A DNA stretch of 64,000 nt from a virus: positions 1 through 64,000 of IMG/VR virus record IMGVR_UViG_3300005288_000003, one strand, 5' to 3'. The position numbers and the translations under genes are program-made. The notes beneath the pieces were generated by a model, which searched no databases, had not been told where the DNA came from, and was given only the letters and a program-made list of their open reading frames with translations. This document shows, in pieces, positions 12,131 to 58,150 of the stretch (positions are counted from its first letter, which is position 1; each line of letters begins with the position of its first letter).

Positions 12131-14743
12131 TTAGTGACACGATGCCCATGAATTTCCAAGTATGTAGCCAGCAGTCAAGTCGATAGGCACCAACTCTGTG
12201 CTGTAGAACTGCCCTGCAAGCGATACAGCCTTCACAGCCAGCACACCCGCCTGACAGAACGCTACAAAATAGCCTCCACCTTTCGTAGCGTGGCTGATAT
12301 CAGACCATACACGGCCAGTGAGTTCGAAGTCTTTGTCCTTGAACGCCTGAGCCTCTTCCTTGGTTGCAAACCGTTTGAACGTCACTTCACTTGCAGACAC
12401 CTCAAGCTGTGCTTCGTCGTGGTACGCAATCATTTGCTGGCAGAACTTCTTATTTTTCCAGTCTTCCAAGAAGAAATCGACGGCTAGGCCGTTCTCTTTC
12501 AACAGAACGTCGTGAATGACCATTGCACGTTTGGCACAGATTACACCGCCCGATTGGAACAGGCTGTTTAGGATGGCGTGTGCAGAACGTGTTGGAACAC
12601 GACGCCCGTCAATCCCGATGATGTACTTCTTGCCATTCGCTTCCCACTCTTTCTGGAGCTGGTCTTTCAGGTGCTTGAGTGGGAATGCAGCATCCCAAAA
12701 CGCTTCAAACACTTGGTTGCCCGTTTGCAGGTCAGAACCAATGGTCTTGGCTACCTTAGCAGCTTGAGCGCCATATGTGCAACCGTACTTCACGTTCTTC
12801 GCTGGCGAACGACCAAACTCCCGACCGATGATAGCACTGATGGATTTCGCCATCATGGTGTGAACGTCAAACGGTTTGTCCAGCATCAACGACTTGCAGT
12901 ATGCCCGATCAGCAGCATCATAACGGTCGCAGTAGGCAGACTCGATACGCGCTTCCAGACTATCGAAGTCATACCCGATTTGGAAGTAGCCGTCAGAGAC
13001 GCCAAACAACGCTCTCAGCTCTTTCCCATACAGGCTGGTAACACGAGGCACGTTCGCCACCGAACGGTGCTTGAATCGGCTTGTAGCGGCTCCACAGGTG
13101 TCTGCCGGAGTTGGAATCCGACCATCTTCCCGCACGTTGCTAATGTAACCCTTTTCTGGCTCTTCGTCTGGATCATCCCAGTCAACACCACCACCGAGAA
13201 TCGAGTTACGTCGGTGTTTGAACGTTAGGTATTCAACCACGTCCTTAGCGAACGGGAAGCTTTCCGAGATACGTTCCAAGTCGGGACACATGTCCTTGTC
13301 TTGGCCCTTAGTAAAACTTGGATTACTAATAACTTTCAACCCACGACCACCACGTTCCAGCATGGCTTCAACCAGATTGCGATCAATTGGACGACGGTTA
13401 GGCCACAGATGTGCCAGACGATCATCACGGAACGCACTGTTCAGAGTCTGTTCAACATACCGCTCTACAGCTTCACGGAACTTGGTCGGGTCAAGCTTGT
13501 TCTTCTTGCTGTCAACCGTCAAGTCTTTTTCTTTGTACTCGCTCGGGTTCCAACCCAAAGACACCAGCCAGTTTTTGATGTGCGTGGTATCGTCAATGGT
13601 TGCATCCATTTCAGTGACCAACGGAACACCAGCTTGCAGCGGTAGAGAGTACACCTTGCCCAGCATTTCTACCGTGCGTGTTTCAGGATCGTATACGCCT
13701 TCGTGCTTGGCAATGAACTTCTCCATGTGAGCGGAGATTTCACCGTTCTTTTTGAACTGGGTTACAGGCGGTGTGTACGCCTTCATGAACACTTGAGTCG
13801 CTGGACGCTTCGGAAGCAACGGCTCTACTTTCACACGGCGCTCTTCCATCATCTTGTCCAATTCATCCAAGGCAATGTGAGCCTTTTCACGGTTGAAGTG
13901 GAAGCCCCGGTGTTCCTGTCGTGTGATGATTTCTGCGATGTTGTGTTCGAGCTTGATTGCACTCACCCACTTCATCAGTTCGTCACGGTTGTTCAGGTTC
14001 GGGCCAGCAGTCTTATGGTCGAGCTTGTTCTTGGTGCCATCCATCAAACCAAAGAACACTTCGGTGTTGGACTTAACGTCGAAAATACAGTAGTACAGCA
14101 TGTCAGCAGCGAAGTCACGGAAACGCAGATCGATGTGCATGTGCTTACGGAATGCGATCTTCTCGCTCGTACCACCAGAAGCCAGCTTCTCCAACGAGTG
14201 ACCGCCGTAGCGGTCAGGGTTCAAGCACTTAGACAACGGGAGTGTATCCCAAATTGCCAGCTTGTTACCGCCCCATGTATCACTGACAAAGGTCGTTAGA
14301 CCGCCGTCTCTAACTTCGTGACCAATGGTGAAATTGATCCCGTACATCAGCTTGATTGCCATCAAGTCGTAGCTGATTTGGTTGTGTGCTACCAGACGAC
14401 GGAACTTTGTCTTGAGGATGAACGCTTTCAGCTCAGACATCGGCTTGTGCGTGTACTCGACTGGAACGTAATTCGACAGCCAGTATTTCTCACCGTTGAT
14501 TTCTTCGTAGTGGTCCTGACCATCGAATTCGTACTTCGGTCCGTTGTGGAATGCTACGATTTCGCCAGTGAAATGGTTCTCGAATACAACACAGTGCATC
14601 GCGAAGTTGCCCTTCAACTTGTACGGGCTTGCCGTGTAGTCGATGGTGCGTTCGTTCAACAGGTCGTTTGCCTCGATGTCCCATGTCCAGTCGTCAGGGT
14701 GTGCGAATTTGTTAGGTTGAAATGGTGGTTTGATCAGGTTCAA
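12131..14743 (-). CDS. polA: Family A DNA polymerase with 3'-5' exonuclease
   Basis: WDIEAN, AHNQISYD, YCIFDV exo motifs; DFDSLEAR (A), RSPAKNVKYGCTYG (B), YHDE (C); probable TTG start at 14743 after AAAGGAG. Confidence 0.95.
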   Translation of the reverse strand: MNLIKPPFQPNKFAHPDDWTWDIEANDLLNERTIDYTASPYKLKGNFAMHCVVFENHFTGEIVAFHNGPKYEFDGQDHYEEINGEKYWLSNYVPVEYTHKPMSELKAFILKTKFRRLVAHNQISYDLMAIKLMYGINFTIGHEVRDGGLTTFVSDTWGGNKLAIWDTLPLSKCLNPDRYGGHSLEKLASGGTSEKIAFRKHMHIDLRFRDFAADMLYYCIFDVKSNTEVFFGLMDGTKNKLDHKTAGPNLNNRDELMKWVSAIKLEHNIAEIITRQEHRGFHFNREKAHIALDELDKMMEERRVKVEPLLPKRPATQVFMKAYTPPVTQFKKNGEISAHMEKFIAKHEGVYDPETRTVEMLGKVYSLPLQAGVPLVTEMDATIDDTTHIKNWLVSLGWNPSEYKEKDLTVDSKKNKLDPTKFREAVERYVEQTLNSAFRDDRLAHLWPNRRPIDRNLVEAMLERGGRGLKVISNPSFTKGQDKDMCPDLERISESFPFAKDVVEYLTFKHRRNSILGGGVDWDDPDEEPEKGYISNVREDGRIPTPADTCGAATSRFKHRSVANVPRVTSLYGKELRALFGVSDGYFQIGYDFDSLEARIESAYCDRYDAADRAYCKSLMLDKPFDVHTMMAKSISAIIGREFGRSPAKNVKYGCTYGAQAAKVAKTIGSDLQTGNQVFEAFWDAAFPLKHLKDQLQKEWEANGKKYIIGIDGRRVPTRSAHAILNSLFQSGGVICAKRAMVIHDVLLKENGLAVDFFLEDWKNKKFCQQMIAYHDEAQLEVSASEVTFKRFATKEEAQAFKDKDFELTGRVWSDISHATKGGGYFVAFCQAGVLAVKAVSLAGQFYSTELVPIDLTAGYILGNSWASCH

Positions 14744-14809
14744 TTCTCTCTCCTTTGTTGTGTCTAAAACGACGAAAGGGAGAGTACCGTAGTACCCTCC
14801 CATTGTCAA

Positions 14810-16777
14810 TCAGTATTGCGATTCACCGCCCCATTGCTGGTATTCAACAAAGCCTCGCTCTGCAAGGCCACGTCGAGAGCTACCACGAGAGCTTTCACGC
14901 TCTTCTTCTTTGGCAGCTTGACCAGCTTCGTACTCTGCTCGTGCTGCTGGGTTCTTAGTGAGGTAGTCTTCCAGATCGTACAAAGTGTGTTCCTTGTTCG
15001 CGTAGAAGTACTCCCCAGCCTTCGGCCCTGTGTTGCCAGTCCAACGACACTTAGTCATCTTCATGTACGTGATGTTACGTTCAATCTCGCACTCAGCTTC
15101 TTTGTTTCGTGTGAACAACAGGTTGCACGCACCAGACTTGAAGATCGAGCTAGAGCCTTGGAAGTCCTCTTCGAACAGGTCTGCACCCGCCGAGTTCTGC
15201 TTCCCGCCCTGACCACTCTTACGGACGTGGTTGATGTTGATGAACGTCACCTTGTGGCTCTTCACAAGCCCTTTCTGCCAACGCATGAATACCGCCTGCT
15301 CTTCGTTGCTCATACCGTCCAGAATGTCTTGTAGAGGGTCGAGGATGATCACCTTGCAATCGCAGGAAATGATCAGCTCCATCACTTTCTCTTTCAGGTC
15401 ATCCAAGCCACCATCACGTTCGTCCAGCAAATGCCAACGGTGCGAGCCGTCAGGATTGTAGGTAAGCTCTTGAACAGCAGCCTCGAACTCTGGTGTGTTC
15501 ATCAGGTCGATTTTGTACTGCATATCTTCGATCAGTTCGAGCTTCTGACCAATGTGGCGCGAAGCCATCTTGATACCGTACTCTGCACAATCCGATTCCA
15601 GCGATACAACACCCACCTTGTGAGGCGAGTGGAAAATCCAGAAGTAAACCATTTCATCGACGATGGTCGATTTGCCCGTACCCGATGCAGAACCAAGGTT
15701 GACAATCCGGCCAAGTGGAATACCACCAGCCATCATCTTCTGTACCTTGTGCATGAACGCTGGCAATGGAATCTTCGGAACTACAGCCGCTGCTTTCATC
15801 AGAGAGAGCAACGATCCAGAACCAACAATACCGTTTGGCGTGTATGGCTGGCAAGCGAAGAACTCGGTGATGAACAGCCCTTGCTTGGCTACTGCCTGAT
15901 TCTTGTCTTTGTCCCACATGTAGCTGTTTGGGTCTTTCAGGGACATTTCCATGATGTACGCTTTGCCCTTCGGCAATGCCTTGGCGATCTTCTCTGCCGC
16001 TTCACGTCCAGCCGCATCGTTGTCCATGCAGATGATAACACGATCAAATCGGTTGAAGAACTCGTACTGTCCAACTACTTGCTTGTAGGCGCCAGATTCA
16101 CCGATGGTTGGCGACACAACGAACGTTGATTCGAAGTCTTGCCCTTTCTTGGCGTTCTCTCTTGCTCGGAAGTCAGCCAACATCTGATACGCCGAAAGCT
16201 GGTCAACTTCGCCGCCTACGATCAGGATATCTCGACTACGCTTTTGCAGGAAACGCCACTGGCCGAACATATGACAGTCCTTACCAGTTTCACCAATCCC
16301 CGCGAAGTCCTTGGGAATCATTCGTTTCTTGTAGCCTGTCAGCTCAAACCCCATATCGTTTTCAGCTTCTTGCGTGCACGGATAAAGCTGAGCAGACACA
16401 TTACCAGTGGCACCGTCAATCTCGTGACGTACTCCAAAGAAGGTGGTCGTATCTTTTCGAATACCGCGATAGCCAAAGCTGTCGTTTGTGGTTTGGGCTT
16501 TCAGTTGCTCGTGAATATCTGCGTTGAACAAACTGCCCACTAGATCATACTCCTTTTCAACTACTACACCGTTTTCTTCAAGCCACTCTTCGGAAGGGAT
16601 GGTAAAACCACCGCACCCACCGAAGCAGTGCGCTCCCTTGTGACGACCGTCTCTGTCGGTGCCATACACCATCAGGTTGTCGCCGCTGTTGTCCATGCCT
16701 TTCGCCACGCACTTTGGACAAGCAACCTTGCCCTCGGTATACAGGTCAATACCGTACTTATCTGCTACATCTGACAC
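14810..16777 (-). CDS. T7 gp4-like primase-helicase
   Basis: N-terminal CPKC...HCFGGC Zn finger, Toprim GGEVD/MDNDAAG, Walker A ASGTGKST, ILDP, INHVRK. Confidence 0.93.
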   Translation of the reverse strand: MSDVADKYGIDLYTEGKVACPKCVAKGMDNSGDNLMVYGTDRDGRHKGAHCFGGCGGFTIPSEEWLEENGVVVEKEYDLVGSLFNADIHEQLKAQTTNDSFGYRGIRKDTTTFFGVRHEIDGATGNVSAQLYPCTQEAENDMGFELTGYKKRMIPKDFAGIGETGKDCHMFGQWRFLQKRSRDILIVGGEVDQLSAYQMLADFRARENAKKGQDFESTFVVSPTIGESGAYKQVVGQYEFFNRFDRVIICMDNDAAGREAAEKIAKALPKGKAYIMEMSLKDPNSYMWDKDKNQAVAKQGLFITEFFACQPYTPNGIVGSGSLLSLMKAAAVVPKIPLPAFMHKVQKMMAGGIPLGRIVNLGSASGTGKSTIVDEMVYFWIFHSPHKVGVVSLESDCAEYGIKMASRHIGQKLELIEDMQYKIDLMNTPEFEAAVQELTYNPDGSHRWHLLDERDGGLDDLKEKVMELIISCDCKVIILDPLQDILDGMSNEEQAVFMRWQKGLVKSHKVTFININHVRKSGQGGKQNSAGADLFEEDFQGSSSIFKSGACNLLFTRNKEAECEIERNITYMKMTKCRWTGNTGPKAGEYFYANKEHTLYDLEDYLTKNPAARAEYEAGQAAKEEERESSRGSSRRGLAERGFVEYQQWGGESQY

Positions 16778-16786
16778 GTTCCCTCC

Positions 16787-17044
16787 TTATGCAACCATTG
16801 GCCCCGGCCCATCGTCCTCTGGTTCAGGGTCTGGTGTTTTCAGCTTGTTTTCTGCCGCTTTCCGTGCGTACAGCCATTTGTATTGAACGCGCTCTTCTAC
16901 CGACAACGGGTGTGACAGTTGGTAGGTGTCGCCTTCATCCGATACGCTGAAAGGAATCAGATGCTCGCCCATTGCAGCGGTCATCAAGTCAGACAGGTTT
17001 GGATGTTTGAGGATCAGGACGTGGCCTTGCAGATCGCGAATCAT
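16787..17044 (-). CDS. Hypothetical protein
   Basis: Coupled ORF. Confidence 0.6.
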   Translation of the reverse strand: MIRDLQGHVLILKHPNLSDLMTAAMGEHLIPFSVSDEGDTYQLSHPLSVEERVQYKWLYARKAAENKLKTPDPEPEDDGPGPMVA

Positions 17045-17250
17045 GCGTCCACCTTTGGTGCCCATTCCATCATCAAAGCTGGAATCGTCAGCAGCAAGAT
17101 GCTATCAATGATTACCAGAATCACACCATTGACGGACAGGCCGAGGAATGCCATTGCAGCCAGCACACCGACCAACTCTTTGAAGACAACGATCATGACC
17201 ATCATCAGCAGCAAACCGAGGATGAAACTATTACGACCAAGCATTTCCAT
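17041..17250 (-). CDS. Membrane protein
   Basis: Two hydrophobic helices; AAGGAG RBS. Confidence 0.65.
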   Translation of the reverse strand: MEMLGRNSFILGLLLMMVMIVVFKELVGVLAAMAFLGLSVNGVILVIIDSILLLTIPALMMEWAPKVDA

Positions 17251-17251
17251 T

Positions 17252-17401
17252 TTACTCTCCTTTATGGCGATGTTTCTTTTTGCGACGGTACTTGGTACGG
17301 TCACGTTCTACCTTCGGGACGTTCACACGTCGGTTCGGTCCAGCTACAGGATTACGAGCCAAGAACCCGCATCCAGTGCCACCCATCTTTGTATTCGACA
17401 T
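17252..17401 (-). CDS. Small basic protein, ArfA-like
   Basis: RNPVA...PKVERDRTKYRRKKKH basic C-terminus. Confidence 0.45.
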   Translation of the reverse strand: MSNTKMGGTGCGFLARNPVAGPNRRVNVPKVERDRTKYRRKKKHRHKGE

Positions 17402-17561
17402 CGTATACGTCCTTTTCGTGTAGGTTTTCGATAAACACTCGCCACATTGCAGGGCCAGTCGGTACAGCAGACACATCGTAGCCGAGAGGATCGGTCCTGT
17501 CAAACAGTTTCTGCACGAACTCTTGCATCTGTGTTTGTAGGAAGGCTTCCGTCACACGCAT
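17352..17561 (-). CDS. Hypothetical protein
   Basis: ORF in a dense array. Confidence 0.55.
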   Translation of the reverse strand: MRVTEAFLQTQMQEFVQKLFDRTDPLGYDVSAVPTGPAMWRVFIENLHEKDVYDVEYKDGWHWMRVLGS

Positions 17562-17731
17562 CGCATTTCTCCAATAGCTTCGGTGAGGTAGGATTGTAGT
17601 TGTGCGGCTTGTTCCATGTCAAGCATTATCGTTTCCTGACTCCCATGTGTGCCGTCTACTGCAATGAACAGGCGGTTGTCGAGTGTGTGAACCACTTCAA
17701 TGCGGCGGTCGTCTGATGTGTCGATAATCAT
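17552..17731 (-). CDS. Hypothetical protein
   Basis: AAAGGAG RBS before ATG at 17731. Confidence 0.6.
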   Translation of the reverse strand: MIIDTSDDRRIEVVHTLDNRLFIAVDGTHGSQETIMLDMEQAAQLQSYLTEAIGEMRCV

Positions 17732-17753
17732 GTGTCTCTCCTTTCTTGAGGCG

Positions 17754-17783
17754 AAGAAAAGCCCCGCTGCATAAGCACGGGGC
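17754..17783 (-). terminator. Rho-independent terminator
   Basis: GCCCCG-TGCTTATGCAG-CGGGGC followed by TTTTCTT. Confidence 0.85.
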
Positions 17784-17795
17784 CATTCAATTGTT

Positions 17796-18075
17796 TGTCC
17801 TGTCACCGGCAGCTCGGGGCACTGTCAGGGTCGATAGAATAACACCACTCAACCTGAATCCGAGATTCGATAATCTTTTCGCTTTCGACGTTACGTGGCT
17901 AATAGATTAGTCGTTGACGTTTGAAGCTTTGCCCTTTCATCGTTGATCTTTGACCGTAGTCACCGCGACATTTATCAGAATGTTTGGTTTAAAAGACCAG
18001 TTCTTAATAGGCTCCGAGCTTCACAGCCGCTCGGAATAGCTGATTCTAGTGAAGACAGTTCACCGGAACAAGACA
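17796..18075 (-). ncRNA. Putative ~280-nt structured RNA with heptamer repeats
   Basis: ORF-free; 5' TGTCTTGT.CCGG pairs with 3' CCGG..ACAGGACA; internal hairpins; NNNAA(A/C)G array at 17868-17954. Confidence 0.7.
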
Positions 18076-18081
18076 TAAACT

Positions 18082-18696
18082 TTACACTTCTACTTTCGTA
18101 GTCGCGTTAACTTCCGACAGAGCGAAGTCCACTTCCAGAAGGAAGGCATCGATTTCGGCAGCCAGAGCATCAATGACCTTGGTCACGTCGCTTGGGTCAA
18201 GCACTTCTGCTTTGTTCTGAGCTTCGAACGGGCCAGTGATGGCTTTCAGTTCAGCTTCGTCAACCTTGCGGTCTTTACCCACAGCAGTGCGAATCAGGTC
18301 ATCCAGACGCTGTTGAACAGAAACGTTGGTACGTTCAACGAGGGCGATTTGCTGTGCCTGTTGTTGACGTAGTGTACCCAGCAGGGTCTGTTCCAGAGCG
18401 ATGGAGCTTTTACGCTCGATGGCTTCTGCTACAGTCTGAACCACACCAGCAATGGTCACGGTGGTCACAGCGTTCGAACGAACGATAGCTGCTTTCAGTG
18501 CCTTGCGTTGCTTGATCAGGTCTTGAACCGATTGGAGGTTTGCCTTCAAGATTTCAGAAATCTCTTGAGCTGGTTTGCCAGATGGGTGCTTACCGCCAAC
18601 TACGTTGGAAATGAATGCCTGAGCTGTGGTCCGTGCAATACGGTCGTTCAGGGATTTGACTTGTGCCAAAGCACGAGTTACGGAAATCTGTGTCAT
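18082..18696 (-). CDS. 204-aa coiled-coil protein (DIP1984/septicolysin-like)
   Basis: MT.ISVTRALAQVKSLNDRI...LKAAIVRSNA.T...TVAEAIE...EVDFALSEVNATT; strong RBS. Confidence 0.75.
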   Translation of the reverse strand: MTQISVTRALAQVKSLNDRIARTTAQAFISNVVGGKHPSGKPAQEISEILKANLQSVQDLIKQRKALKAAIVRSNAVTTVTIAGVVQTVAEAIERKSSIALEQTLLGTLRQQQAQQIALVERTNVSVQQRLDDLIRTAVGKDRKVDEAELKAITGPFEAQNKAEVLDPSDVTKVIDALAAEIDAFLLEVDFALSEVNATTKVEV

Positions 18697-18732
18697 TGTC
18701 TTTCTCTCCTTTGTTTGTCTTTGTATTGGGCC

Positions 18733-18760
18733 ATTCTACACTAGAACAGCCCGTTGTCAA
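18733..18760 (-). promoter_or_regulatory. Promoter TTGACA-N16-TAGAAT(GGCC)
   Basis: Directly upstream of the 204-aa gene. Confidence 0.8.
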
Positions 18761-18769
18761 CGACTATTT

Positions 18770-19000
18770 TCAATCGAGGACGATTTTGATGTCATGACGG
18801 TACACCAGATCACCATCACGGTACAGCTCGACTTGCGAACGTGCGTAGTTCAGGTACAGGGTGTCAGCACCGTGGAACATGTAGGCCAGACGGAAATCAC
18901 AGTTATAGAACTGTACGCCTTCCTCAGTTTCATCCCAACCCTCGTAGCTGTCGATGAAAGCCTTTTCGATGCCCAGTGCCGAACGATAAATGCGAGACAT
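18770..19000 (-). CDS. Hypothetical protein
   Basis: Coupled ORF with RBS. Confidence 0.65.
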   Translation of the reverse strand: MSRIYRSALGIEKAFIDSYEGWDETEEGVQFYNCDFRLAYMFHGADTLYLNYARSQVELYRDGDLVYRHDIKIVLD

Positions 19001-19290
19001 TATTGTTGCTCCTTTTCAATTAATCGGTAGATGGTGTTGCGAGTTTCGATGAAATGCTCATCGCCCACAGTAAACATTTGCTTCACTGTCGAAGTACGAA
19101 CAGGATCGCCATCACGGAAGATGCCACGACTGTCGTTGAAGATGAAGCCATGAGCAACAGTGTGCCCCGGAAACATCGTGGTGTCAAGCGACTTGAACAC
19201 CATGTCAGCAACGAACTTGTCTTCTGGCAGAGCATCCAGTGGAAGAATCCGCCAGCTCATACCTTCAAACACTTCACGTGCGGGGCTCAT
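19000..19290 (-). CDS. Hypothetical protein
   Basis: G.IFNDSRG.FRDG..VRTS.V...IETRNTIYRL, a motif common in small phage proteins. Confidence 0.7.
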   Translation of the reverse strand: MSPAREVFEGMSWRILPLDALPEDKFVADMVFKSLDTTMFPGHTVAHGFIFNDSRGIFRDGDPVRTSTVKQMFTVGDEHFIETRNTIYRLIEKEQQ

Positions 19291-19643
19291 ACAGCAGCCA
19301 CCGGCAGGTCAGCTAGACGTGCTTCCAGTTCGTCAGTGAAGTAGGTCTTGCCGAACAGAACAGTCTTTGGACGCTCCTTGAGCTTGTGACCAACAACAGT
19401 CAACGTGTTCACGAAAGTGAAGGACATTTCCTTGTAACTCGTGCTACGCTCGAAGAACGAGTCAGAGTTGTCCCAACCGATTGCACCGCTCGGTTCAACG
19501 AACAAATACTTGGCATCGAGTTGCTTGGCCTTTTTACCGTCGTATTTCCAACGGCAGCCCTGAGTGAACAGGAACTCTTGAACCGCTTGAGACTGTGCAG
19601 CGTTTTGCAGTTTGATTTTGATGCTACGGAATTCATTGGACAT
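19287..19643 (-). CDS. Hypothetical protein
   Basis: AAGGAG RBS before ATG at 19643. Confidence 0.7.
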   Translation of the reverse strand: MSNEFRSIKIKLQNAAQSQAVQEFLFTQGCRWKYDGKKAKQLDAKYLFVEPSGAIGWDNSDSFFERSTSYKEMSFTFVNTLTVVGHKLKERPKTVLFGKTYFTDELEARLADLPVAAV

Positions 19644-20019
19644 GTTGTTCTCCTTTAGGTCGATTTGGTGCATCTTGTACGATAGCCAGAGGATTGTCGT
19701 CAATCCAGATGTCCACCCTGATGCCTTTAGCTGCCATGTAATCTTGTTTGGCTTGCAGAGAAGTGTAGTACACTGCGAAACCCCTGTCAACAAGAAATTG
19801 TAAATCTTCTGGATACGTTTTCGGTGTACGCCATGTGACAATCACCACATGATAACCCAGTCGTTCCAATAGAGTCAACACTTGAAGCCAGCCAGACTCA
19901 TTATCGCTGATGGTTTCGTCGAAGTCAACACCAATGATCTTCGGTTCTGCCATCATGAATTCCTGACGGCTCCACGGATTGAATCCACCGAGCATGGGAG
20001 CAACTTGCATATCCATCAT
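19633..20019 (-). CDS. HAD-superfamily phosphatase
   Basis: DFDET motif I, VTWR motif II, K, WIDD motif IV. Confidence 0.8.
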   Translation of the reverse strand: MMDMQVAPMLGGFNPWSRQEFMMAEPKIIGVDFDETISDNESGWLQVLTLLERLGYHVVIVTWRTPKTYPEDLQFLVDRGFAVYYTSLQAKQDYMAAKGIRVDIWIDDNPLAIVQDAPNRPKGEQHVQ

Positions 20020-20210
20020 TGGAACCTCCGCATGGAACTTTCCAGTTCACGAATCAAACCTTCACTGCTCACCTTCTGCAAGATACGCCCAGCGTAGTCT
20101 TGGTTCGTCTCGTGTGAAGCCTGTGGCATGTGTAGGTTGAGGTCTTGCAGAACAGTCATACGTTCGCTCACTCGAAGTTGGAAAAATGCTAGCGCTAATG
20201 CCCTGTTCAT
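20016..20210 (-). CDS. Hypothetical protein
   Basis: GGAG RBS; coupled. Confidence 0.55.
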   Translation of the reverse strand: MNRALALAFFQLRVSERMTVLQDLNLHMPQASHETNQDYAGRILQKVSSEGLIRELESSMRRFQ

Positions 20211-20321
20211 TGAAATCTCCCGTTTTTGTATTTGAGAACCTTGTGCATTCGCATGCACTCGAATTGTGTGCCGACAAGGCTACCACTTCCGGCAGCTTTC
20301 TTGCAAGCTATTTCTTTGTCT

Positions 20322-20762
20322 TCATGCAGGCTTGTCGTAGGCATCAGGGTAAAGTGCAGCAGGATACACACGATAAGCTTTCTGCACCATCCTGCGAGGC
20401 TTGTGGCTATGGTCATGAATCACTCCATCAATAACGGCCAACGCATGACCACGAACAAATACCCAGTAGCGACCCACTGGATGTGCGAGACAAAACTTCT
20501 CCAGAGAGATTTTATTGTCTTCTGTGTACGGGCCAGCCCGCATCTTCGTCTTTGGGCAGCGCTGCATAGCCTGTTCACGGCCTATGTCATACGGCACACC
20601 ACGACGTGGTTTCCGCTTGAACTGTGTCTTCATATGATGATGGGCAGCTTCGTAGGGAGCGTCCCACACAGTAGCGAAGCTCACAACCATGCAGTCACGA
20701 GTCTCACGATACTTCTTGCGTATCTCCTTGAATTGCTCCCAGTTGTCGATCCAATCTGCCAA
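20322..20762 (-). CDS. Hypothetical protein (possible Cys/His peptidase-like fold)
   Basis: RDCMVVSF...GHALAVIDG..HD; GGAGG RBS with TTG start. Confidence 0.6.
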   Translation of the reverse strand: MADWIDNWEQFKEIRKKYRETRDCMVVSFATVWDAPYEAAHHHMKTQFKRKPRRGVPYDIGREQAMQRCPKTKMRAGPYTEDNKISLEKFCLAHPVGRYWVFVRGHALAVIDGVIHDHSHKPRRMVQKAYRVYPAALYPDAYDKPA

Positions 20763-20895
20763 TCTCGGCCTCCAGTTCGCGTATGCGATAGCGTTTGATG
20801 ATGTTCTGCTTCACGGACTCTGCGTGTATCAAAGAGTCGTAGAACGACACATGCACGGTGATCCAGTCAAGCTCTGCTTGAAGACTGCTGTTCAT
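20704..20895 (-). CDS. Hypothetical protein
   Basis: ATGA-coupled ORF. Confidence 0.5.
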   Translation of the reverse strand: MNSSLQAELDWITVHVSFYDSLIHAESVKQNIIKRYRIRELEAEIGRLDRQLGAIQGDTQEVS

Positions 20896-21044
20896 TCCAC
20901 TCTCATTCTTTCAATGAATTTGAGCCACCGAGCATACGCTGCTTCTGGACCCTTGTCAAACGAATGTAGGCCAAGACCAACACATTCGTACAACCCATGC
21001 TTCCAATATCTGATACGAGGCTTCGCCCCTTGTTCTCGGTTCAT
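20892..21044 (-). CDS. 50-aa hypothetical protein (not in ORF track)
   Basis: MNREQGAKPRIRYW...; ATGA overlaps at both ends. Confidence 0.55.
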   Translation of the reverse strand: MNREQGAKPRIRYWKHGLYECVGLGLHSFDKGPEAAYARWLKFIERMRVE

Positions 21045-21202
21045 CGCGGCCATGCCTTATGTGAAGTGTAGTTGTGGAAGCGGAGGGAAGGCTTGCTGTA
21101 GCCTGTCAACGCCATGAGCGGGTGAGCAATCGCGTCATGCACAAATGCCCAACCCTTGTTCTCTTTCTGGTTATCACAAATCTTGTTTGGATCGGTCTTC
21201 AT
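21041..21202 (-). CDS. Hypothetical protein
   Basis: Coupled ORF; WAFVHDAIAHPLM. Confidence 0.55.
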   Translation of the reverse strand: MKTDPNKICDNQKENKGWAFVHDAIAHPLMALTGYSKPSLRFHNYTSHKAWPR

Positions 21203-21521
21203 CAAACCACCCCAGTGCATAAGTGACACAGCCTTTGCAGAGTTTTGCAGTGGCTGATTCGTAGTCTTGTGGTTGTCCAACTTCGATAACCTCTTCGAAC
21301 TGGCCGTCGCATTCATCACAGCGACATGCAGTCCATGTTGGGTTGCCGATAGCCATATCAACGAAATCAGCAGAAGGGTTTGAACCGAGAGCTTTCAGGT
21401 CTTCGTAGATGGTCCGTTTCCCGTCATCATACCGCCATTGGTTATTGCGTTTGTCGAAGTAGGTTTCGTACCAACGATCAGCTACGCCCTTTGCCAGATC
21501 ATCCCGTCGTATCATGTGCAT
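21174..21521 (-). CDS. Zn-finger hypothetical protein
   Basis: CDEC...CKGC. Confidence 0.6.
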   Translation of the reverse strand: MHMIRRDDLAKGVADRWYETYFDKRNNQWRYDDGKRTIYEDLKALGSNPSADFVDMAIGNPTWTACRCDECDGQFEEVIEVGQPQDYESATAKLCKGCVTYALGWFDEDRSKQDL

Positions 21522-21685
21522 TTCAACACTCCCACGATGTTGACCTGTTCGCCGGCGGCTTCGGATTTCACTCGGTCGATGAACGACAGGAAATGATACC
21601 CGTTCTTCCGGCTCCACGCAAGCACTGGCTCGTTTCCGAGGTGCTTCCGTAGCGTGTATTCTTCGAAATCATTGAGGTTGTACAT
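21512..21685 (-). CDS. Hypothetical protein
   Basis: AAGGAG RBS. Confidence 0.55.
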   Translation of the reverse strand: MYNLNDFEEYTLRKHLGNEPVLAWSRKNGYHFLSFIDRVKSEAAGEQVNIVGVLKCT

Positions 21686-21998
21686 GCTGTTCTCCTTTGG
21701 CCCATTCAATTGCTTTCACGAGGACATCCCCGTGGCATGCTTGAGGCGCACAATAGCAAGCCAACCGTTTCCCGTCAAGCTCTATTAGCATTTCTTTTGT
21801 AACCACATGACACTGAATCAGCTTCCACAGGTTCTGTTTATAGGCAGCTACAGCTTCTTCACGTGTTGCCACCTTCACATCTGCCTTCGTTCCTTCTTTG
21901 TGGCTGTATGGATTGCCCCAGCGGCTACCACGTCCGATGTATACAATGTCGGGATCATCCATGCACACCTTGTATTTGTTCACAACTGTTGCTGTCAT
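21669..21998 (-). CDS. DUF4326-like protein
   Basis: VYIGRGSRWGNPY...LDGKRLACYCAPQACHGDVL; AGGAG RBS before ATG at 21998. Confidence 0.8.
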   Translation of the reverse strand: MTATVVNKYKVCMDDPDIVYIGRGSRWGNPYSHKEGTKADVKVATREEAVAAYKQNLWKLIQCHVVTKEMLIELDGKRLACYCAPQACHGDVLVKAIEWAKGEQHVQPQ

Positions 21999-22030
21999 GA
22001 TGCTTCTCCTGTGTAGATGAGTTTCGTAGT

Positions 22031-22305
22031 GGAGGCAAACCTGTCCCATAGCTCGCCATACAGATGTTCTCTGCCTCGACGTGCTATGAGGTTCACCTTC
22101 CGACGTTCTCGTGTAGATTGAGATCGTGAGCGGGCAGCATGTGCTGCAAGCGGCTGAGAGCCTTCCTCTATATAGAGTGTTCCATACGGAGTCGTCGCCA
22201 GACTGTTCTCTCATTCAACCTCAGCTGCCCCTCTGGCTATCCTCTTCGTAGGGCGTGTACCGTTCAGCCGGTGAGCGAGCCGTAGCTGACATGTCTCTCT
22301 GAACG
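22031..22305 (-). ncRNA. Structured ~275-nt RNA, copy A
   Basis: Homologous to 57791-58064 with compensatory changes; starts ~7 nt after the -10 box. Confidence 0.8.
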
Positions 22306-22312
22306 TGGGGAC

Positions 22313-22373
22313 ATTCTATATGGGAAATTTATTTTGTCAAGGGTGTTGACAGCTTCCAGATAATCGGTAGAAT
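22313..22373. promoter_or_regulatory. Back-to-back divergent sigma70 promoters
   Basis: Minus strand TTGACA-N16-TAGAAT (22340-22313); plus strand TTGACA-N16-TAGAAT (22346-22373). Confidence 0.85.
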
Positions 22374-22404
22374 GGCCGACATCACAAACAACGGAGGAAA
22401 CACA

Positions 22405-22773
22405 ATGAACCCTGTAACTGTCAAATCGATCTACGGCAAAACCATCAAGTTCGAAGATGATGCAATGCAAACTGGTCGTATCTCTGTCACTGTCCGAGAC
22501 AGTAGCGGTGAACAAGTCCGCAACATGATCTTCACTGCCACTGAACTGGCAAGGCTTACTGCTGAACTGGCTCCAGTGAAATCGGATAAGGGCGTGTTCT
22601 TCCTGCTGCGTCAACGCGTTGGCAATCCCCTGAAAGTGAAGACGTGCTTTGCTGGCGTGACAACCACTAAGGAATACACCAGCCGTTGCGAAGCAGAACG
22701 GTCTGCAAAATCACTGAACGAGCAGTATGGTTTGAAGTGGAACTACTTCGTCGTCGAAAAGGGGGCTGTATAA
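22405..22773 (+). CDS. Hypothetical protein
   Basis: GGAGG RBS; first gene after the plus-strand promoter. Confidence 0.7.
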   Translation: MNPVTVKSIYGKTIKFEDDAMQTGRISVTVRDSSGEQVRNMIFTATELARLTAELAPVKSDKGVFFLLRQRVGNPLKVKTCFAGVTTTKEYTSRCEAERSAKSLNEQYGLKWNYFVVEKGAV

Positions 22774-23919
22774 TGTCTGAACGTAAACTGGCTCGTGTTG
22801 TAATCATCGATTCGCTTCACCCGATCAAAGGCAAGGATCGTATCGAACTGGCTATGGTTGGTGGCTGGCAAGTCATCGTGCAGAAAGGTTTGTACGAAGT
22901 AGGTTCGAAGGCGATGTTCTTCGAAGTTGACTCGCTGATCCCAATTGAGTCGCCTGCTGGTGCGTCTCTGGCTGGCATTTCGTCTAAACTGAAACACGTG
23001 ATCGATGGCCAGCACAGACGCTCGGATCAAGACCATGAAGATGGCTGGTACGCTGTCGCAGGGCTTCTGTGTCCCACTGGCGGAAGTTGGTGCAAGTGAA
23101 GGTTGCAGCGTTGACTCTGACTTCACCAAAACGCTTGGTATCATTAAGTATGAAGCTCAGGCAGAGAAAGACAGCATCGCTGGTGGTACTGGCGTGAAGA
23201 GCGGCACTAGCGCTTTGGGCTTCCCGAAAATGATCCCGAAGACTGATCAGACTCGTGTACAGAACATTCCTGTGCAGTTTGACGCTGCTCGTGATGCGGG
23301 TGAACTGTTCGAGAAGAGCTTCAAGCTCGATGGTAGTTCGCTCACTGCATTTCTGTACAAAGGTGTGCCGGGTGTTGCCTCGCGTAACGTTGGCTTCCGT
23401 TTGCAGTCTGTGAACAAAGGCTTCGTGCAAACCGTCAAAGACTGGTGGAAGCAAGTGAAGCAACGCGGTATTCGTCGTGCGAATTGGGAACCTCAGTTCA
23501 AGGCAGACGACAACCAATTCACACAAGCTGCACAAGAATCTGGTGTTCTGACTGCGTTGGTTCGTGAGAACCGTAACCTCGCTTTCCAAGGTGAGTTGGT
23601 TGGCCCATCGATTCAGAAGAACTTCGAGGGCGTGGAGCAGAACGAGCTGTACATTTACGACGTGTACGATATCGATGCACAGAAATACCTTCTGCCTGCT
23701 GAGCGTCAAGCTCTGTGTGCGAAGTATGGCCTGAAACATGTGCCACTGGCATCGACTCACGCTGTTACCTTGCCTGTTGACGTAGCAACTGCTATCGTTG
23801 ATGCTGATGGTCCATCGGGTCTTAATGGCAAGTACCGTGAAGGCTTCGTGTACAAATCGATGACCCGAGACTTCTCGTTCAAGGTGATCAGCAACGCTTA
23901 CTTGCTCAAGGAGGAATGA
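22773..23919 (+). pseudogene. RNA ligase (DRB0094/Rnl-like) split by a 1-nt frameshift near 23005-23020
   Basis: N-part ERKLARV..I..HPI.G.DRIELA.VGGWQ...FFEVDS continues in the +1 frame with RIKTMK..G.LSQG, PKTDQTRVQN, KLDGSS, QGELVG, REGFV, FKVISN; total 1147 nt = 3n+1. Confidence 0.8.
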
Positions 23920-49815: not shown

Positions 49816-51258
49816 CTATGCGTTATTCGCGGCAGAGTTATCTCGGCCACTAGCTGTTTTGGATGCACCATTACCAATTCCGGCTTGTCCAGCTTGGCTT
49901 TGTCCGCCCATGATTTCATCTTCCTTTACAGGAGCGTCATCAGGACGACGAACGATCTTGAGACTATCGCGAATCTTGTTCATAACAGGACGGTCGCGTT
50001 CAAGACCACCAACACTGCCAATACGTTGAATGGCTTTGGAGAACTCATCAAGGTCAACTTCGTCAAGATCACCGTAGACTAGCTTTGGAAGCTTAACGTC
50101 TGGAGATACACCGTTCATTGCGAACAGTTGTTTAACGAGGTCGTTGTTCAGCACATCTTGGATTTCTTGTAGGCGGGCTTCGATAGCCATCGCCATGATG
50201 TTTGTTTTTGCACCAGCCAGAGAGTAAGAACCAACTTGGTCTTGACCCATCTTCAACATGTCAGCAAACAAGACCATTAGGATTTTGTTGTCCCAACGCT
50301 TGATGATTGCGTCCGTGTCGTACATCTTCCCGCCCATAGTCGAAGTTAGTTCGAACTTGAACAGAGGTTGACGTGAATCAGGATCGAATGCTTGGGGAAG
50401 GATCAAACCACTTTGTTCGTTCATCTGGATATTCCGAATGACGTTCTTGTAGTATTCGTAGATCGCTTTCTCAGCGTCAGTTGCGTCTGCACTCATGTAA
50501 CGTGGCGGAAGATACAGGGTTGGCATACCGTTCATGTCACGGGTCACACCAACTGCTTCCTGTTCTTCGATCAGGGTACGATATTTCCAAGCGTGGTATG
50601 CAGCACGGAGAGGACTATTTCCTTCCGGGTTGTCACGCTTTACATCGACTCTGAAATGCAGGAATTTCTTGCGAGGGATGTCAATTGTTCCCGTTGCGTT
50701 CAGTAGCTTGGCATAACGGTCTGTACCGTCTGTGATGCACGCTAAGCTCTGCTGGACACCGATAAGGTCACGCCCGTCATCCGAGTATAGCCATTTGTTT
50801 ACCGTTGCCTGTGAGCGAACTGGGAGCTTCTTGAAGCCTACCTTGTTGTCGTTGTATTGGGAGCCATTGTCCCATGTGCGACGGCGGTAGACTTTCTCGT
50901 TAATGCAATACCCGTAGGTAAATGCACTGGTAACTTCTTGGATGAAAGATCGCCAACTGTGATCCATGTCGTGCATGGCTTCTTCGAGGAATTTGGCATT
51001 GGCTTTCATTTCAGCGGATGGGTCGATTCCAGTATCAACGATCCATTCAACGCGGCTCACCATCATTTCGAACAACGAAAGAGCGGCTGCGATTGTGGCA
51101 TCTTGTGCCATAAGTTGGAAAGTTCTGTTGGCTTCGGGGAAGCGAAGTTCTTTACGAGCTTCTTCCTGAATTCGACCACCGTGTTGTTTGAGTCCTACGA
51201 CACCCAACTCACCCAGTCGAAGACGGGGGATAGATGCCTTTTCGATAACTTCGGTCAT
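49816..51258 (-). CDS. Portal protein
   Basis: NPEG.S.LR.AY..WKY, GSYSLA; follows the terminase gene. Confidence 0.88.
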   Translation of the reverse strand: MTEVIEKASIPRLRLGELGVVGLKQHGGRIQEEARKELRFPEANRTFQLMAQDATIAAALSLFEMMVSRVEWIVDTGIDPSAEMKANAKFLEEAMHDMDHSWRSFIQEVTSAFTYGYCINEKVYRRRTWDNGSQYNDNKVGFKKLPVRSQATVNKWLYSDDGRDLIGVQQSLACITDGTDRYAKLLNATGTIDIPRKKFLHFRVDVKRDNPEGNSPLRAAYHAWKYRTLIEEQEAVGVTRDMNGMPTLYLPPRYMSADATDAEKAIYEYYKNVIRNIQMNEQSGLILPQAFDPDSRQPLFKFELTSTMGGKMYDTDAIIKRWDNKILMVLFADMLKMGQDQVGSYSLAGAKTNIMAMAIEARLQEIQDVLNNDLVKQLFAMNGVSPDVKLPKLVYGDLDEVDLDEFSKAIQRIGSVGGLERDRPVMNKIRDSLKIVRRPDDAPVKEDEIMGGQSQAGQAGIGNGASKTASGRDNSAANNA

Positions 51259-51267
51259 GGCCTCGCC

Positions 51268-52743
51268 TTAATAAAGTCTGAATGGGTTCGTCTGTGTCAT
51301 CACTGGAACAGTGAAGTCAGGCAAGTGAATGTCTGTAGACAAGTTGTTGAATGCGTCCGATGTGGCGTCCACCATGTCGTCTTTGATGTTGCGAGAACCG
51401 TCAAAGCGAACTAGCTCAGAAATGTAATCTCCGTTCCATTCTCCAACTACCATCTGCACGCCACCAGCTTCTGCAACAGCAGCGAAGGGAGCGAATCGGG
51501 TAACTTTGGATTTGTTGGTGGCTTTCATTCGAGCGTAATAGCCATAGTCGGCCAAGTCTCGAATCAACTGGGCAGCATAAGCTTTACCAGCAGCACCGGG
51601 GTCTTGCGGAATGATGATAGTTACATCGTCGCCATCTTGTTTGGCAGTTTCAAGGATGAGGTCGAATACGCCGCCATGCCTGCGTCTGTCACGCACCACA
51701 TGTTCGATGGTATACATACCGGATCGATCTTTCGACATCAATACACCAGCAGTCCAGTCGGGCTCAGGGTTCGTGTCGGAAGGCATTGTACCGCTAATGT
51801 CCCAAGCTCTTACACGCTTACCTGCGTTCAGGGGCGGCATTGGAATCTTGTGAACCCACTCTTCTTTGAAGTATCCGCTACCTTCTTCTCGGGCAAGCCA
51901 ACTACCGTGAAGTAGACGTGCTTTCTCTACACGACCCAAACCTTTGAGCATCGCAACATAGCCGGGATCGGCTTTGCACAATACAGGGTTGTCGTATACG
52001 TTACCTGAAATGAAGCAGAAACTAAGAGGTTGACATTGATCGTGGTGATCGACTGGAAGGCCGGGAGTGTGATACTTCTCATACACTTCTTCCCATGAAG
52101 CACCCCAGTGCATCTTGTCGTTCAAACGGACAAACCATCTTGTAACGCCGTCACGTTCGGGGATTGGAATTCCAGTATCTGGATCAAGCCACCATTCGAG
52201 CCAATGACGCAAGAAGCTGTCATAGTCCGGGTTACATGTGATTTTCATGTGTGGTTTTACGGAACAAGCCGGGTTACGCATACGAGATAGCAAGTATACG
52301 ACCATAGCTTCTTCGAATTGTTGTCCTTCGTCAACGAGGAACTTACTTACCTCCCAACCTTGGAAGTTGTCCTTGGCTTTGAGGTCTTGGAAGTGACGGA
52401 GGAATACCTTAGCTCCGCTAGAGAAAGCGAAGTGGTCTTGTTTTGCTCTCCACTTAACCTTCGGATCAATCAACGAGAAAAGAGCCATTGCTTTTTCTAG
52501 AAGACCACCGGGGCCAGTGAGTTGTGGGGTTGTTCTACGAACGAGAACGCCACGGAAATTTGGATCGTGGACATGTTTCAGAAAGTCCATTACGCCTAAG
52601 TAGGATTTACCTGCCCCAGCCGCTCCACCAAATACAGTGATGTTTGCGTCTGCGTGCATGAAGTCATATTGCTTTGGTGACTTTGGCCCGATGATGTTTG
52701 GGTTCAAATCGAATACTGGATATTCTTTTGGCTTGAGAACCAT
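51268..52743 (-). CDS. terL: Terminase large subunit
   Basis: GGAAGAGKS Walker A, VDE Walker B, TCNP, RAWD, DDMVDA nuclease motifs. Confidence 0.95.
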   Translation of the reverse strand: MVLKPKEYPVFDLNPNIIGPKSPKQYDFMHADANITVFGGAAGAGKSYLGVMDFLKHVHDPNFRGVLVRRTTPQLTGPGGLLEKAMALFSLIDPKVKWRAKQDHFAFSSGAKVFLRHFQDLKAKDNFQGWEVSKFLVDEGQQFEEAMVVYLLSRMRNPACSVKPHMKITCNPDYDSFLRHWLEWWLDPDTGIPIPERDGVTRWFVRLNDKMHWGASWEEVYEKYHTPGLPVDHHDQCQPLSFCFISGNVYDNPVLCKADPGYVAMLKGLGRVEKARLLHGSWLAREEGSGYFKEEWVHKIPMPPLNAGKRVRAWDISGTMPSDTNPEPDWTAGVLMSKDRSGMYTIEHVVRDRRRHGGVFDLILETAKQDGDDVTIIIPQDPGAAGKAYAAQLIRDLADYGYYARMKATNKSKVTRFAPFAAVAEAGGVQMVVGEWNGDYISELVRFDGSRNIKDDMVDATSDAFNNLSTDIHLPDFTVPVMTQTNPFRLY

Positions 52744-52792
52744 CGTGCCTCCTTGCTGTAAGGTTAATGGGAATGTCCCGCTTTATGTGAGT

Positions 52793-52820
52793 AGTATAAC
52801 CCGGAAGTTGAGTTTGTCAA
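52793..52820 (-). promoter_or_regulatory. Promoter TTGACA-N16-TATACT upstream of terL
   Basis: Hexamers in the intergenic gap. Confidence 0.7.
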
Positions 52821-52852
52821 CCCCCGAGTGTAACATTTATCCAATCAGACTG

Positions 52853-53065
52853 TCAAGCCTTCAATGCAGCAATAATTGCGTTAATAGCAACCTTGTTTGC
52901 ATTCGCCAAAGCTTGTGCCGTTGGTAGGTCAGTAGCGTTCGCAGTTGTAACTGGAGTTAGGGCAGCAACAGCAGCAGCCACTCCAGAGTCGATGAACGCT
53001 CCAGCTTTGATACCTTCAAGCAGTCCAAGTTGTGCAACCAGTGCGTATTGTTCCGATGTAGTCAT
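52853..53065 (-). CDS. Small Ala-rich protein (head fibre-like)
   Basis: ATDL.TAQALANA.K..INAIIAALKA. Confidence 0.6.
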   Translation of the reverse strand: MTTSEQYALVAQLGLLEGIKAGAFIDSGVAAAVAALTPVTTANATDLPTAQALANANKVAINAIIAALKA

Positions 53066-53112
53066 TTTGATTTCCTTGAGTTGAGTGTGCCGTGATGGCA
53101 AATTGTAGAAAC

Positions 53113-53136
53113 GAGAAAACCCACGCGAGGTGGGTT
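53113..53136 (-). terminator. Terminator ending the tRNA cluster
   Basis: AACCCAC-CTCGC-GTGGGTT-TTCTC. Confidence 0.65.
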
Positions 53137-53202
53137 ATCTTGACAAGACGTATCGGCTAAGGTAGCTCTTGGCTACATGCGAGTGCTCCGATTGTCTATG
53201 TT

Positions 53203-53274
53203 TGGAGCAGAATGTCAGAATCGAACTGACCTCATCAGCTTGGAAGGCTGGGCGCTCACCTTGAGCAATCCTGC
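53203..53274 (-). tRNA. tRNA-Gly(TCC), short D-arm
   Basis: Cloverleaf, CT-TCC-AA loop, TTCGA T-loop, encoded CCA. Confidence 0.8.
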
Positions 53275-53628: not shown

Positions 53629-53652
53629 GTTTACCTCATTCAGTTTGTAATT

Positions 53653-53729
53653 TGGTGGGGCCGGAACGAATCGAACGTTCGACCTGTGGGGTTTCAAGCC
53701 ACCGCTCTAACCTACTGAGCTACAACCCC
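53653..53729 (-). tRNA. tRNA-Phe(GAA)
   Basis: Cloverleaf, CCA. Confidence 0.85.
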
Positions 53730-53734
53730 TTGTG

Positions 53735-53809: not shown

Positions 53810-53816
53810 CATAATT

Positions 53817-53893: not shown

Positions 53894-53900
53894 ATGTGTT

Positions 53901-57659: not shown

Positions 57660-57790
57660 GGATTGGTTCCTTCTATTGGTTTGTTATTTCACATAGTCTC
57701 CTTCTATATTTCATATGATGATGGATTGTATGTGGATGGGTTAAGTGGTTGATTTATAAGATGTTGATCTTATGGGGATAGATTCTTAAC

Positions 57791-58064
57791 GGAAGGTAGA
57801 CTCAGCCCAAGGGATCGCCATACACAAAAGTGCCTAAGACGAAACCTTGGTCTACCTTCCACAAGTTCTCATGAGGATGAGTTCTTGAACGGCCTGTATG
57901 GACAGGAGACAGCGTTTGCTGTCAGGTTCTGGTCATTCCCTCCGAAGAGGTCAGCTCCACGCTATAACCAGATGAGACTCAGCTTGCCCGTGTGGAATCC
58001 TCTTCATGGGCTACATCGTTGGCCGGTGAGTGATGCTTTCGCAGACATATCTCTCCAACGACAT
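57791..58064 (-). ncRNA. Structured ~275-nt RNA, copy B
   Basis: Homologous to 22031-22305; perfect 11-bp GGAAGGTAGAC/GTCTACCTTCC stem; GAAA and TTCG tetraloops. Confidence 0.8.
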
Positions 58065-58069
58065 TCACG

Positions 58070-58150
58070 ACTATAACCGACAAGCGGCTTAATGTCAAGC
58101 AATATATCTCATTCCAGTGTATTGACAACTCAGATAGGCAGTGTTACTAT
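58070..58150. promoter_or_regulatory. Divergent sigma70 promoters
   Basis: Minus strand TTGACA-N17-TATAGT (58098-58070); plus strand TTGACA-N17-TACTAT (58122-58150). Confidence 0.8.

Follow-up and report, generated by a model that had tools for sequence, protein, structure and literature searches.

An undescribed pseudoknotted RNA family at the start of two transcripts in Pseudomonas myophages

The window analysed here, a 64,000-nucleotide stretch that forms the first part of the 97,840-bp genome of a Pseudomonas myophage, contains two minus-strand loci that resemble each other. An initial annotation, made from the letters alone, proposed that they are diverged copies of a structured RNA. We asked whether the two loci are indeed copies of one RNA, whether that RNA belongs to a known class, how it folds and what it might do for the phage. 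The two loci are true copies of an undescribed, pseudoknotted phage RNA family of ~300 nt.

Two copies directly behind their promoters

The 97,840-bp genome holds exactly two copies of the element, both on the minus strand, according to an nhmmer profile of 17 homologues and likewise to a covariance model. Copies A and B align with each other along their entire length of ~300 nt each (Table 1). Each was predicted to lie behind a sigma70 promoter of its own, and both promoters are present, with 11 of 12 box positions matching. The first helix, P1 (helix names run 5' to 3'), starts 7-8 nt past the -10 box in copies A and B. The distance from the -35 and -10 boxes to P1 is constant in all 19 aligned Pseudomonas-phage homologues, and in every one of these 19 the element is the transcript start, directly after a near-consensus promoter. 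The ordered motifs and stems listed as shared in the initial annotation were found at both loci, including the 5' stem, the small hairpin with its UNCG/GNRA swap, the middle stem and two helices of the 3' domain. The lengths first given, 275 and 274 nt, describe real loci, but the 3' ends had been placed ~25-30 nt short; the true ends lie at ~22002 and ~57763, and the conserved element extends this far because a second repeat copy comes after the last hairpin. The motifs CGTC..AGGCA and TGTATGGCGA are likewise present, but they are the two sides of one internal loop. The GCCC...GGGC hairpin also stands, with an addition: its loop pairs downstream as a pseudoknot that the first reading had missed. 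That reading had also overlooked a GNRA-receptor-like loop in P9 and a ~21-nt direct repeat around P9.

The element does not belong to a family that we could recognize. The search against Rfam that had been suggested as a check gave no relevant match: neither locus scored above a gathering threshold of Rfam 15, and with the cutoff relaxed to E ≤ 10 copy A still had no match and copy B had three chance snoRNA-type matches (E 1.9-7). At 11 distant loci, Rfam found nothing but tRNAs. The families without a match comprise tRNA, tmRNA, RNase P, 6S, group I and group II introns, HEARO, ROOL, GOLLD, riboswitches and small ribozymes. In the literature, we found no paper describing the element. Fragments of it could be among the 8495 short unnamed candidates (29-151 nt) of a viral RNA catalogue published in 2023 (PMC10690425). 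The related Pseudomonas myophage PAK_P3 encodes two non-coding RNAs, sRNA1 and sRNA2, in its tRNA-gene region; they are about 90-130 nt long and are expressed late (PMC4933390). We rejected the identity of the element with either of them, as the sequences differ and the examined region of PAK_P3 (Nankokuvirus) gave no match to the family.

The closest public relatives are the Pseudomonas phages ventosus, Bitten and UAVern, with 81-89% identity over the two loci. By BLASTN, 182 phage records contain the copy-B type and 23 contain the copy-A type, which places the family in at least 182 phage records. The carriers are Pakpunavirus (PAK_P4, PaP1, JG004, K5, C11), Otagovirus (phiPsa300/347/397, PPSC2, M5.1), Flaumdravirus (KIL1-5) and unclassified phages of P. 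putida, P. fluorescens and P. protegens. Model searches of whole records found two copies each in PAK_P4, phiPsa300, XD2 and KIL1 (four out of the four checked). The two copies of a genome share one strand and occupy conserved positions, separated by 33-36 kb of the circular map, and three of these four phages are assigned to different genera. Using an IMG/VR pattern scan and a model of the 5' domain, we recovered distant members from about a dozen unrelated metagenomic phage contigs, with E-values of 1e-16 to 7e-7 over all 143 model positions. Among the 120 pattern matches listed for representative bacterial and archaeal genomes, there was no convincing profile match.

Table 1. Positions in the window of the two copies, their structural parts and neighbouring genes
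Feature	Positions	Strand	Evidence or remark
Copy A, whole element (inferred start to end of DR2)	22002..22306	-	R1 115.7 bits, R2 138.4 bits
Copy A promoter, TTGACA-16-TAGAAT	22313..22340	-	sigma70, 11/12 matches
Copy A P1 domain	22261..22305	-	encloses two invariant strands and P2
Copy A P1	22299-22305 with 22261-22267	-	7/7 pairs changed on both sides, 99.6% paired
Copy A invariant strand GAGAYAUGUC	22288-22300	-	invariant alignment columns
Copy A P2, variable hairpin, UACG loop	22278-22287	-	
Copy A invariant strand CUCACCG	22268-22277	-	invariant alignment columns
Copy A P3 and pseudoknot region	22197..22254	-	
Copy A P3	22251-22254 with 22227-22230	-	4/5 pairs changed on both sides
Copy A pseudoknot	22233-22237 with 22197-22201 (inside P4)	-	4/5 pairs changed on both sides
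Copy A P4	22208-22213 with 22155-22160 (region 22155..22213)	-	covariation analysis
Copy A P5, hairpin within P4	22166-22177	-	covariation analysis
Copy A P7, hairpin	22134..22147	-	5/5 pairs changed on both sides, 98.9% paired
Copy A DR1, local hairpin P8	22103..22127	-	loop is the variable core AUCUACAC
Copy A P9, long 3' hairpin	22031..22101	-	internal loop with UAUGG on one side; covariation analysis
Copy A DR2	22002..22027	-	same core AUCUACAC; runs into Shine-Dalgarno AGGAG of the next gene
Copy B, whole element	57763..58064	-	R1 125.7 bits, R2 114.4 bits
Copy B promoter, TTGACA-17-TATAGT	58070..58098	-	sigma70, 11/12 matches
Copy B 5' domain	57928..58062	-	covariation alignment and position counting on the sequence
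Copy B P1	58055-58062/58015-58022	-	
Copy B P2, GAAA loop	58034-58043	-	
Copy B P3	58008-58011/57986-57989	-	
Copy B pseudoknot	57992-57996/57956-57960	-	
Copy B P4	57965-57972/57928-57935	-	
Copy B P5, UUCG loop	57939-57950	-	
Copy B P6	57908-57923	-	extra hairpin, only in B-type copies
Copy B P7	57893-57906	-	with P6 spans 57893..57923
Copy B DR1, hairpin P8	57862..57887	-	core AUCCUCAU
Copy B P9	57791..57860	-	internal loop CUUAGG / UAUGG
Copy B DR2	57763..57788	-	core AUCCCCAU; G-poor tract after it
DUF4326 protein gene, first behind copy A	21669..21998	-	PF14216, E 2.6e-21
RNA ligase gene, operon diverging from copy A	23005-23919	+	PF09414, phrog_968

A covarying fold with a pseudoknotted 5' domain

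The 5' domain consists of P1 to P5 and the pseudoknot. The loop of P3 holds the conserved GAAGAGGA together with the 5-nt pseudoknot strand, and P4 encloses, in addition to P5, a conserved GGAAGG in copy A (GGAAKG across the family). We assessed this fold in an alignment of 34 homologues. Of its 29 pairs, 23 have changed on both sides, and 89.7% of the cells are paired. The covariation score is 0.62, compared with 0.19 ± 0.01 for shuffled partners, and no shuffle out of 500 reached 0.62. Sliding the 3' partners lowered the score to 0.04-0.14. All the helices of the 5' domain are retained in the distant members, where their sequences are different. About half of 35 members have a GNRA loop (GAAA, GCAA or GUAA) on P2.

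The 3' domain holds P7 (with P6 added in B-type copies), the small hairpin P8 and P9, a ~70-nt hairpin of four stacked helices. Across 36 sequences, 19 of the 28 pairs of this domain have changed on both sides, 92.5% are paired and the covariation score is 0.478 compared with 0.181 for shuffled partners; these statistics are biased towards the structure, as the alignment was fitted to a second covariance model. Covariation among homologues, on which the initial annotation had made its proposal depend, is thus strong in both domains; the parts that it supports are P1, P3, the pseudoknot, P4, P5, P7 and P9. G-U pairs are frequent, with UG in 34 of the 36 sequences at one P9 pair, and the structure therefore belongs to the minus strand as RNA. 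The internal loop of P9 has an invariant UAUGG, which faces CUUAGG in 18 of 35 sequences and close variants of it in the others; we take this loop to resemble the 11-nt GNRA-tetraloop receptor. The likeness suggests, as a lead, that P9 may dock onto the 5' core through a GNRA-loop/receptor contact. In the distant members, P9 ends as a G+C-rich hairpin followed by a U-run and is terminator-like.

We considered whether the similarity could have an origin other than RNA, in a small protein gene or in a DNA repeat of the kind of a hairpin mobile element with a target-site duplication. Small ORFs are annotated inside the element in some records, and P9, an imperfect inverted repeat between direct repeats, is superficially MITE-like. 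However, every sense frame contains stops in 34 out of 34 homologues, which removes the conserved protein frame that had been named as an alternative, and both the compensatory changes and the G-U pairs specific to one strand are consistent with a folded RNA. P9 is confined to the element, that is, to the two RNA copies in the genome, and it has invariant loop nucleotides. It covaries, and distant relatives share its internal layout. A MITE would have many near-identical copies and a duplication of fixed length, and neither is found. A protein gene or a mobile DNA hairpin is effectively excluded, and the probability that we attach to this explanation is negligible. The proposal of a paralogous, unrecognised structured RNA family under selection at the RNA level is supported by the covariation, the strand-specific G-U pairs, the absence of a frame and the absence of an Rfam match.

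The pseudoknot, the invariant purine-rich junctions, the frequent GNRA loops of P2 and the UAUGG/CUUAGG loop of P9, recalling an 11-nt tetraloop receptor, would also suit a stable RNA that acts in trans. Such an RNA would be cut or terminated from the 5' end of the transcript and would be a ribozyme, or would bind a host or phage factor or serve as a decoy for one, much like the large ornate phage RNAs that lie next to tRNA arrays. The initial annotation had put forward a ribozyme, a protein sponge, an anti-defence decoy and a primer RNA, all of which are candidate roles here. We regard this as rather unlikely: no Rfam model of a ribozyme or an ornate RNA matches the element, and the genomic context, to which we return below, bears on it in both directions.

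A direct repeat whose variable core is identical on both sides of P9

The ~21 nt ahead of P9 recur behind it, as DR1 (ACGA-UCUCA-X-UGAGA) and DR2 (ACGA-AACUC-X), at a distance of ~100 nt (repeat spacing 96-115 nt). The core X is 8-14 nt long and varies among phages, with 22 distinct 8-mers in 35 sequences. Within one element, X of DR1 is the same as X of DR2 in 21 out of 22 types. Over 10 positions, two repeats from one element agree on average at 9.43, compared with 5.0 for repeats from different elements, and in a permutation test none of 20,000 permutations reached the observed total. The sole mismatching core among the 22 types is copy B of this phage, by one base (U versus C), and its close relative ventosus has C in both repeats at that position. 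Phage Y1-MI has a 23rd core type, in which DR1 and DR2 are also equal. No collapsed variant without P9 was seen; the single partial BLAST match examined, from phage Y1-MI, proved to be a full-length element with a matching core of its own.

Among close relatives, the copy A core is AUCUACAC in this phage, AUUUACAC in ventosus, AUCUGCAC in Bitten and AUUUGCAC in UAVern: single transitions, each present in both repeats simultaneously. In PAK_P4, all four repeats share the core AUCUGCAU (L131 1889-2037; L001 2631-2789), unlike this phage, in which copies A and B have different cores. The distant contigs have the same repeat layout with unrelated sequences. Searching for a complement of X within the RNA (RNAduplex against the upstream RNA and P9) gave only weak matches at inconsistent positions, and genome-wide there were only chance 8-mers. 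The bases just 5' of X differ in a conserved manner, UCUCA in DR1 versus AACUC in DR2. This conserved difference right beside an identical core makes blanket gene conversion unlikely, and the simpler reading of the sequences would be that selection keeps X identical. The varying core length is also unlike a transposase footprint, which speaks against a target-site duplication. We rejected a rolling-circle or coding-concatemer arrangement, as in the DRT2 reverse-transcriptase system, since the repeat spacing is not divisible by three.

DR1 forms a hairpin of its own, with X in the loop between a 5' and a 3' arm, and this gives the four repeat arms two alternative pairings, either two local hairpins or an extended rod. 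In the rod, the 5' arm of DR1 pairs behind DR2 and the 3' arm of DR1 pairs with the 5' arm of DR2 under P9, with both X copies opposed in a two-fold symmetric internal loop. Folding places the two states ~4-5 kcal/mol apart, and covariation cannot distinguish them because the repeats are alike. The minimum-energy fold of copy A is the extended state, with DR1 paired with the Shine-Dalgarno region. A CUGAG junction-repeat helix given by RNAalifold was rejected, as the KIL-type copies have a C-to-G change in both repeats without a compensating change.

A switch between the two pairings would account for the matching stem parts of the repeat, but not for the exact match of the unpaired 8-12-nt core, and we know of no expression platform that requires an identical unpaired repeat core. 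Primer RNA is, with homology-dependent copy-choice, among the few models that need identity rather than complementarity, with no third covarying partner, and the near-complete identity of the cores and the lack of a complement in the RNA or the genome agree with it. In this model, the DR1 loop would pair with the template strand at an opened DR2, and the persistent RNA-DNA hybrid would prime two origins; the core length is near that of a transcription hybrid. ColE1 RNA II is reported to prime in this way, with a G-rich upstream loop and a C-run downstream in the template DNA (Masukata and Tomizawa, 1990). It, too, is a structured RNA made from a promoter, and one of its upstream loops has the sequence of a downstream segment and can pair there with template DNA. 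The ColE1 repeat is a short G-run, whereas that of the element is a 21-nt unit with a variable core and lies on either side of a hairpin; an upstream segment identical to a downstream transcribed segment, as in ColE1, is present in all but one of the 22 core types. Both loci are at divergent-promoter junctions, the DNA after DR2 is A+T-rich in copy B and in the distant members, and distant phages carry the element inside a replication module (primase, NinG, RNA, helicase). On the other hand, DR2 of copy A is part of a ribosome-binding site with a gene directly after it, and a conserved pseudoknotted core is, to our knowledge, not a need of primer RNAs. GC skew was uninformative as an origin marker. 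The repeat lends the primer model specific though weak support, and we consider the model improbable.

Identical cores might also mark a homology-dependent step, in one of two variants that we weighed as a joint reading. In the first, the loop of DR1 would seize the template strand of the DNA at DR2, and the transcript would become a self-anchored R-loop; at two such sites in each genome, it would serve as a replication primer or as a transcription-replication switch. In the second, a polymerase or ligase would join DR1 to DR2, with P9 removed at the RNA level. We know of no leader RNA that uses a homology-dependent step of this kind, and the joint reading is a long shot.

Genomic context and a candidate role as a leader

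The genes that come after the RNA share its orientation in nine distinct contexts, yet they are functionally unrelated: they encode the DUF4326 protein, a small Zn-finger-like protein (CxxC motifs) followed by a tRNA array, an SF2 helicase, HNH and YopX. Co-oriented but unrelated downstream genes are more readily explained by a general operon leader than by a metabolite riboswitch. Copy A runs straight into a ribosome-binding site, and most aligned A-type copies have, behind the DR2 core, a GGAG-type Shine-Dalgarno sequence with an ATG after it. The tract after copy B (57640-57765, minus strand) is 37% G+C, with 13% G and 24% C in the RNA strand, and has no gene start; judged by composition, which is that expected of a Rho-loading site, it could be one. 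Synteny is conserved, with one copy diverging from an RNA-ligase operon (this window, PAK_P4, KIL1, 16Q) and the other upstream of small genes and a tRNA array. In the window, 16 tRNA genes are downstream of copy B on the same strand (53206-56859, minus strand), and this array has several internal sigma70-like promoters (e.g., 55488-55461 and 52820-52793). The operon diverging from copy B carries genes for a DUF7375 protein (58613-59005, plus strand) and a PhoH-like ATPase (59045-59803, plus strand).

On the minus strand, the regions 14000-23000 and 50000-59000 contain many near-consensus sigma70 promoters with 10-11 of 12 matches (e.g., at 18760, 17622, 20959 and 57437). In both of these leftward early regions, such promoters are about twice as frequent as in shuffled sequence, and in each it is the first promoter alone that has the RNA behind it. 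The early regions show no enrichment of terminator-like sites (13 found versus 8.4 ± 3.3 expected). Distant homologues are found in siphophage-like replication modules (L065 7771-12441; L111 984-3864; L041 7063-10023). In one distant contig, the order is primase, NinG, RNA, SF2 helicase, SNF2 helicase and methyltransferase, and HNH genes also occur in such modules. Two other distant members, L026 and L078, are upstream of tRNA arrays. In L041 and L111 at least, a terminator-like sequence rather than a sigma70 promoter is present ~20 nt upstream of the element.

The context bears on the trans-acting RNA as follows. Copy B, L026 and L078 are upstream of tRNA arrays, and the terminator-like end of the distant members would free an RNA of ~230 nt, both of which would suit an independent RNA. 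However, the Pseudomonas-phage copies have no terminator between the element and the next gene, copy A continues into a translated gene, and the element is always co-oriented with the next gene and adjoins it. The always-first, co-oriented position and the ribosome-binding site after copy A favour a cis-acting leader over a free-standing non-coding RNA. Taken together, the transcript-start position, the co-orientation, the unrelated downstream genes and the ribosome-binding-site, G-poor and terminator outputs favour a general cis-acting leader. Our tentative preference is therefore for a leader that acts in cis and would regulate its own transcript by means of a switch in the repeats, a reading that we place a little short of an even chance; the cis action, the switch and what the leader senses are what we infer.

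According to this leader model, the host RNA polymerase would make a long early transcript from each locus, with the element as its first ~300 nt. The leader would be a compact RNA in which the P1-P5 core is locked by the pseudoknot, with invariant junction sequences, and on which the P9 rod may dock. It would act in cis upon its own transcript by adopting either two local hairpins (state 1) or an extended helix stacked beneath P9 (state 2), and the switch would expose or hide the sequence after DR2. In copy A, this output would be the ribosome-binding site of the first gene, and translation initiation would be affected; in copy B, it would be the G-poor tract that could load Rho, and the effect would be on Rho access; in the distant relatives, it would be P9 itself as an intrinsic-terminator-like hairpin, and the effect would be on termination. 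The state of the core, either alone or bound by polymerase, a protein or a ligand, would set the winning pairing, and the winning pairing would set the amount of transcription or translation entering the operon.

We compared the element to known systems. The put RNAs of HK022, which make polymerase read through terminators in cis, are ~70 nt long and have two stem-loops. Both putL and putR resemble the element in having two diverged copies per phage, an early promoter and a location at the operon head; here too, one copy per early operon lies between the early promoter and the genes served. The element, too, would act in cis on the polymerase that transcribes it. It differs in being ~300 nt long and in its fold, which comprises P1-P9 and a pseudoknot and ends in a long hairpin on the 3' side, and it has no recognizable likeness to put in sequence or structure. 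T-box, riboswitch and attenuator leaders share with the element a 5'-leader position, a conserved pseudoknotted sensor-like domain, a hairpin that comes next (terminator-like in the distant members) and repeats that could form mutually exclusive helices. A conserved structured domain in the 5' leader, as in riboswitches, is indeed indicated by the covariation and by conservation out to distant phage contigs. However, the downstream genes are unrelated and do not form a coherent set for one ligand, there is no evident ligand or tRNA-matching element, and the hairpin at the 3' end shows high conservation too and may dock onto the core. ROOL (~580 nt) and GOLLD (~800 nt) form homo-oligomers and are reported beside tRNA genes; copy B too lies upstream of a tRNA array. 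Like the element, they are phage-associated, elaborately folded RNAs (PMC12286853), but the element is smaller, is located at the transcript start and has no match to their covariance models.

Besides the unexplained match of the repeat core, two considerations count against a leader. Many strong promoters in the early regions have no such RNA and terminator-like sites are not enriched there, which makes the need for antitermination uncertain. In addition, tertiary features as elaborate and as highly conserved as these are seen more often in ribozymes or in RNAs with a defined binding partner.

Large, intricate RNAs with strong covariation are rare, and earlier examples turned out to be ribozymes, riboswitches or RNA machines. 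A variable sequence that is kept identical on both flanks of a conserved hairpin has no ready explanation. The family is common to a whole lineage of Pseudomonas myophages, as a rule with two copies in a genome, and this lineage includes phages used or proposed for therapy and biocontrol (PAK_P4, PaP1, JG004, K5, phiPsa, KIL). Being made at the very start of early transcription, the RNA probably acts in the first minutes of infection.
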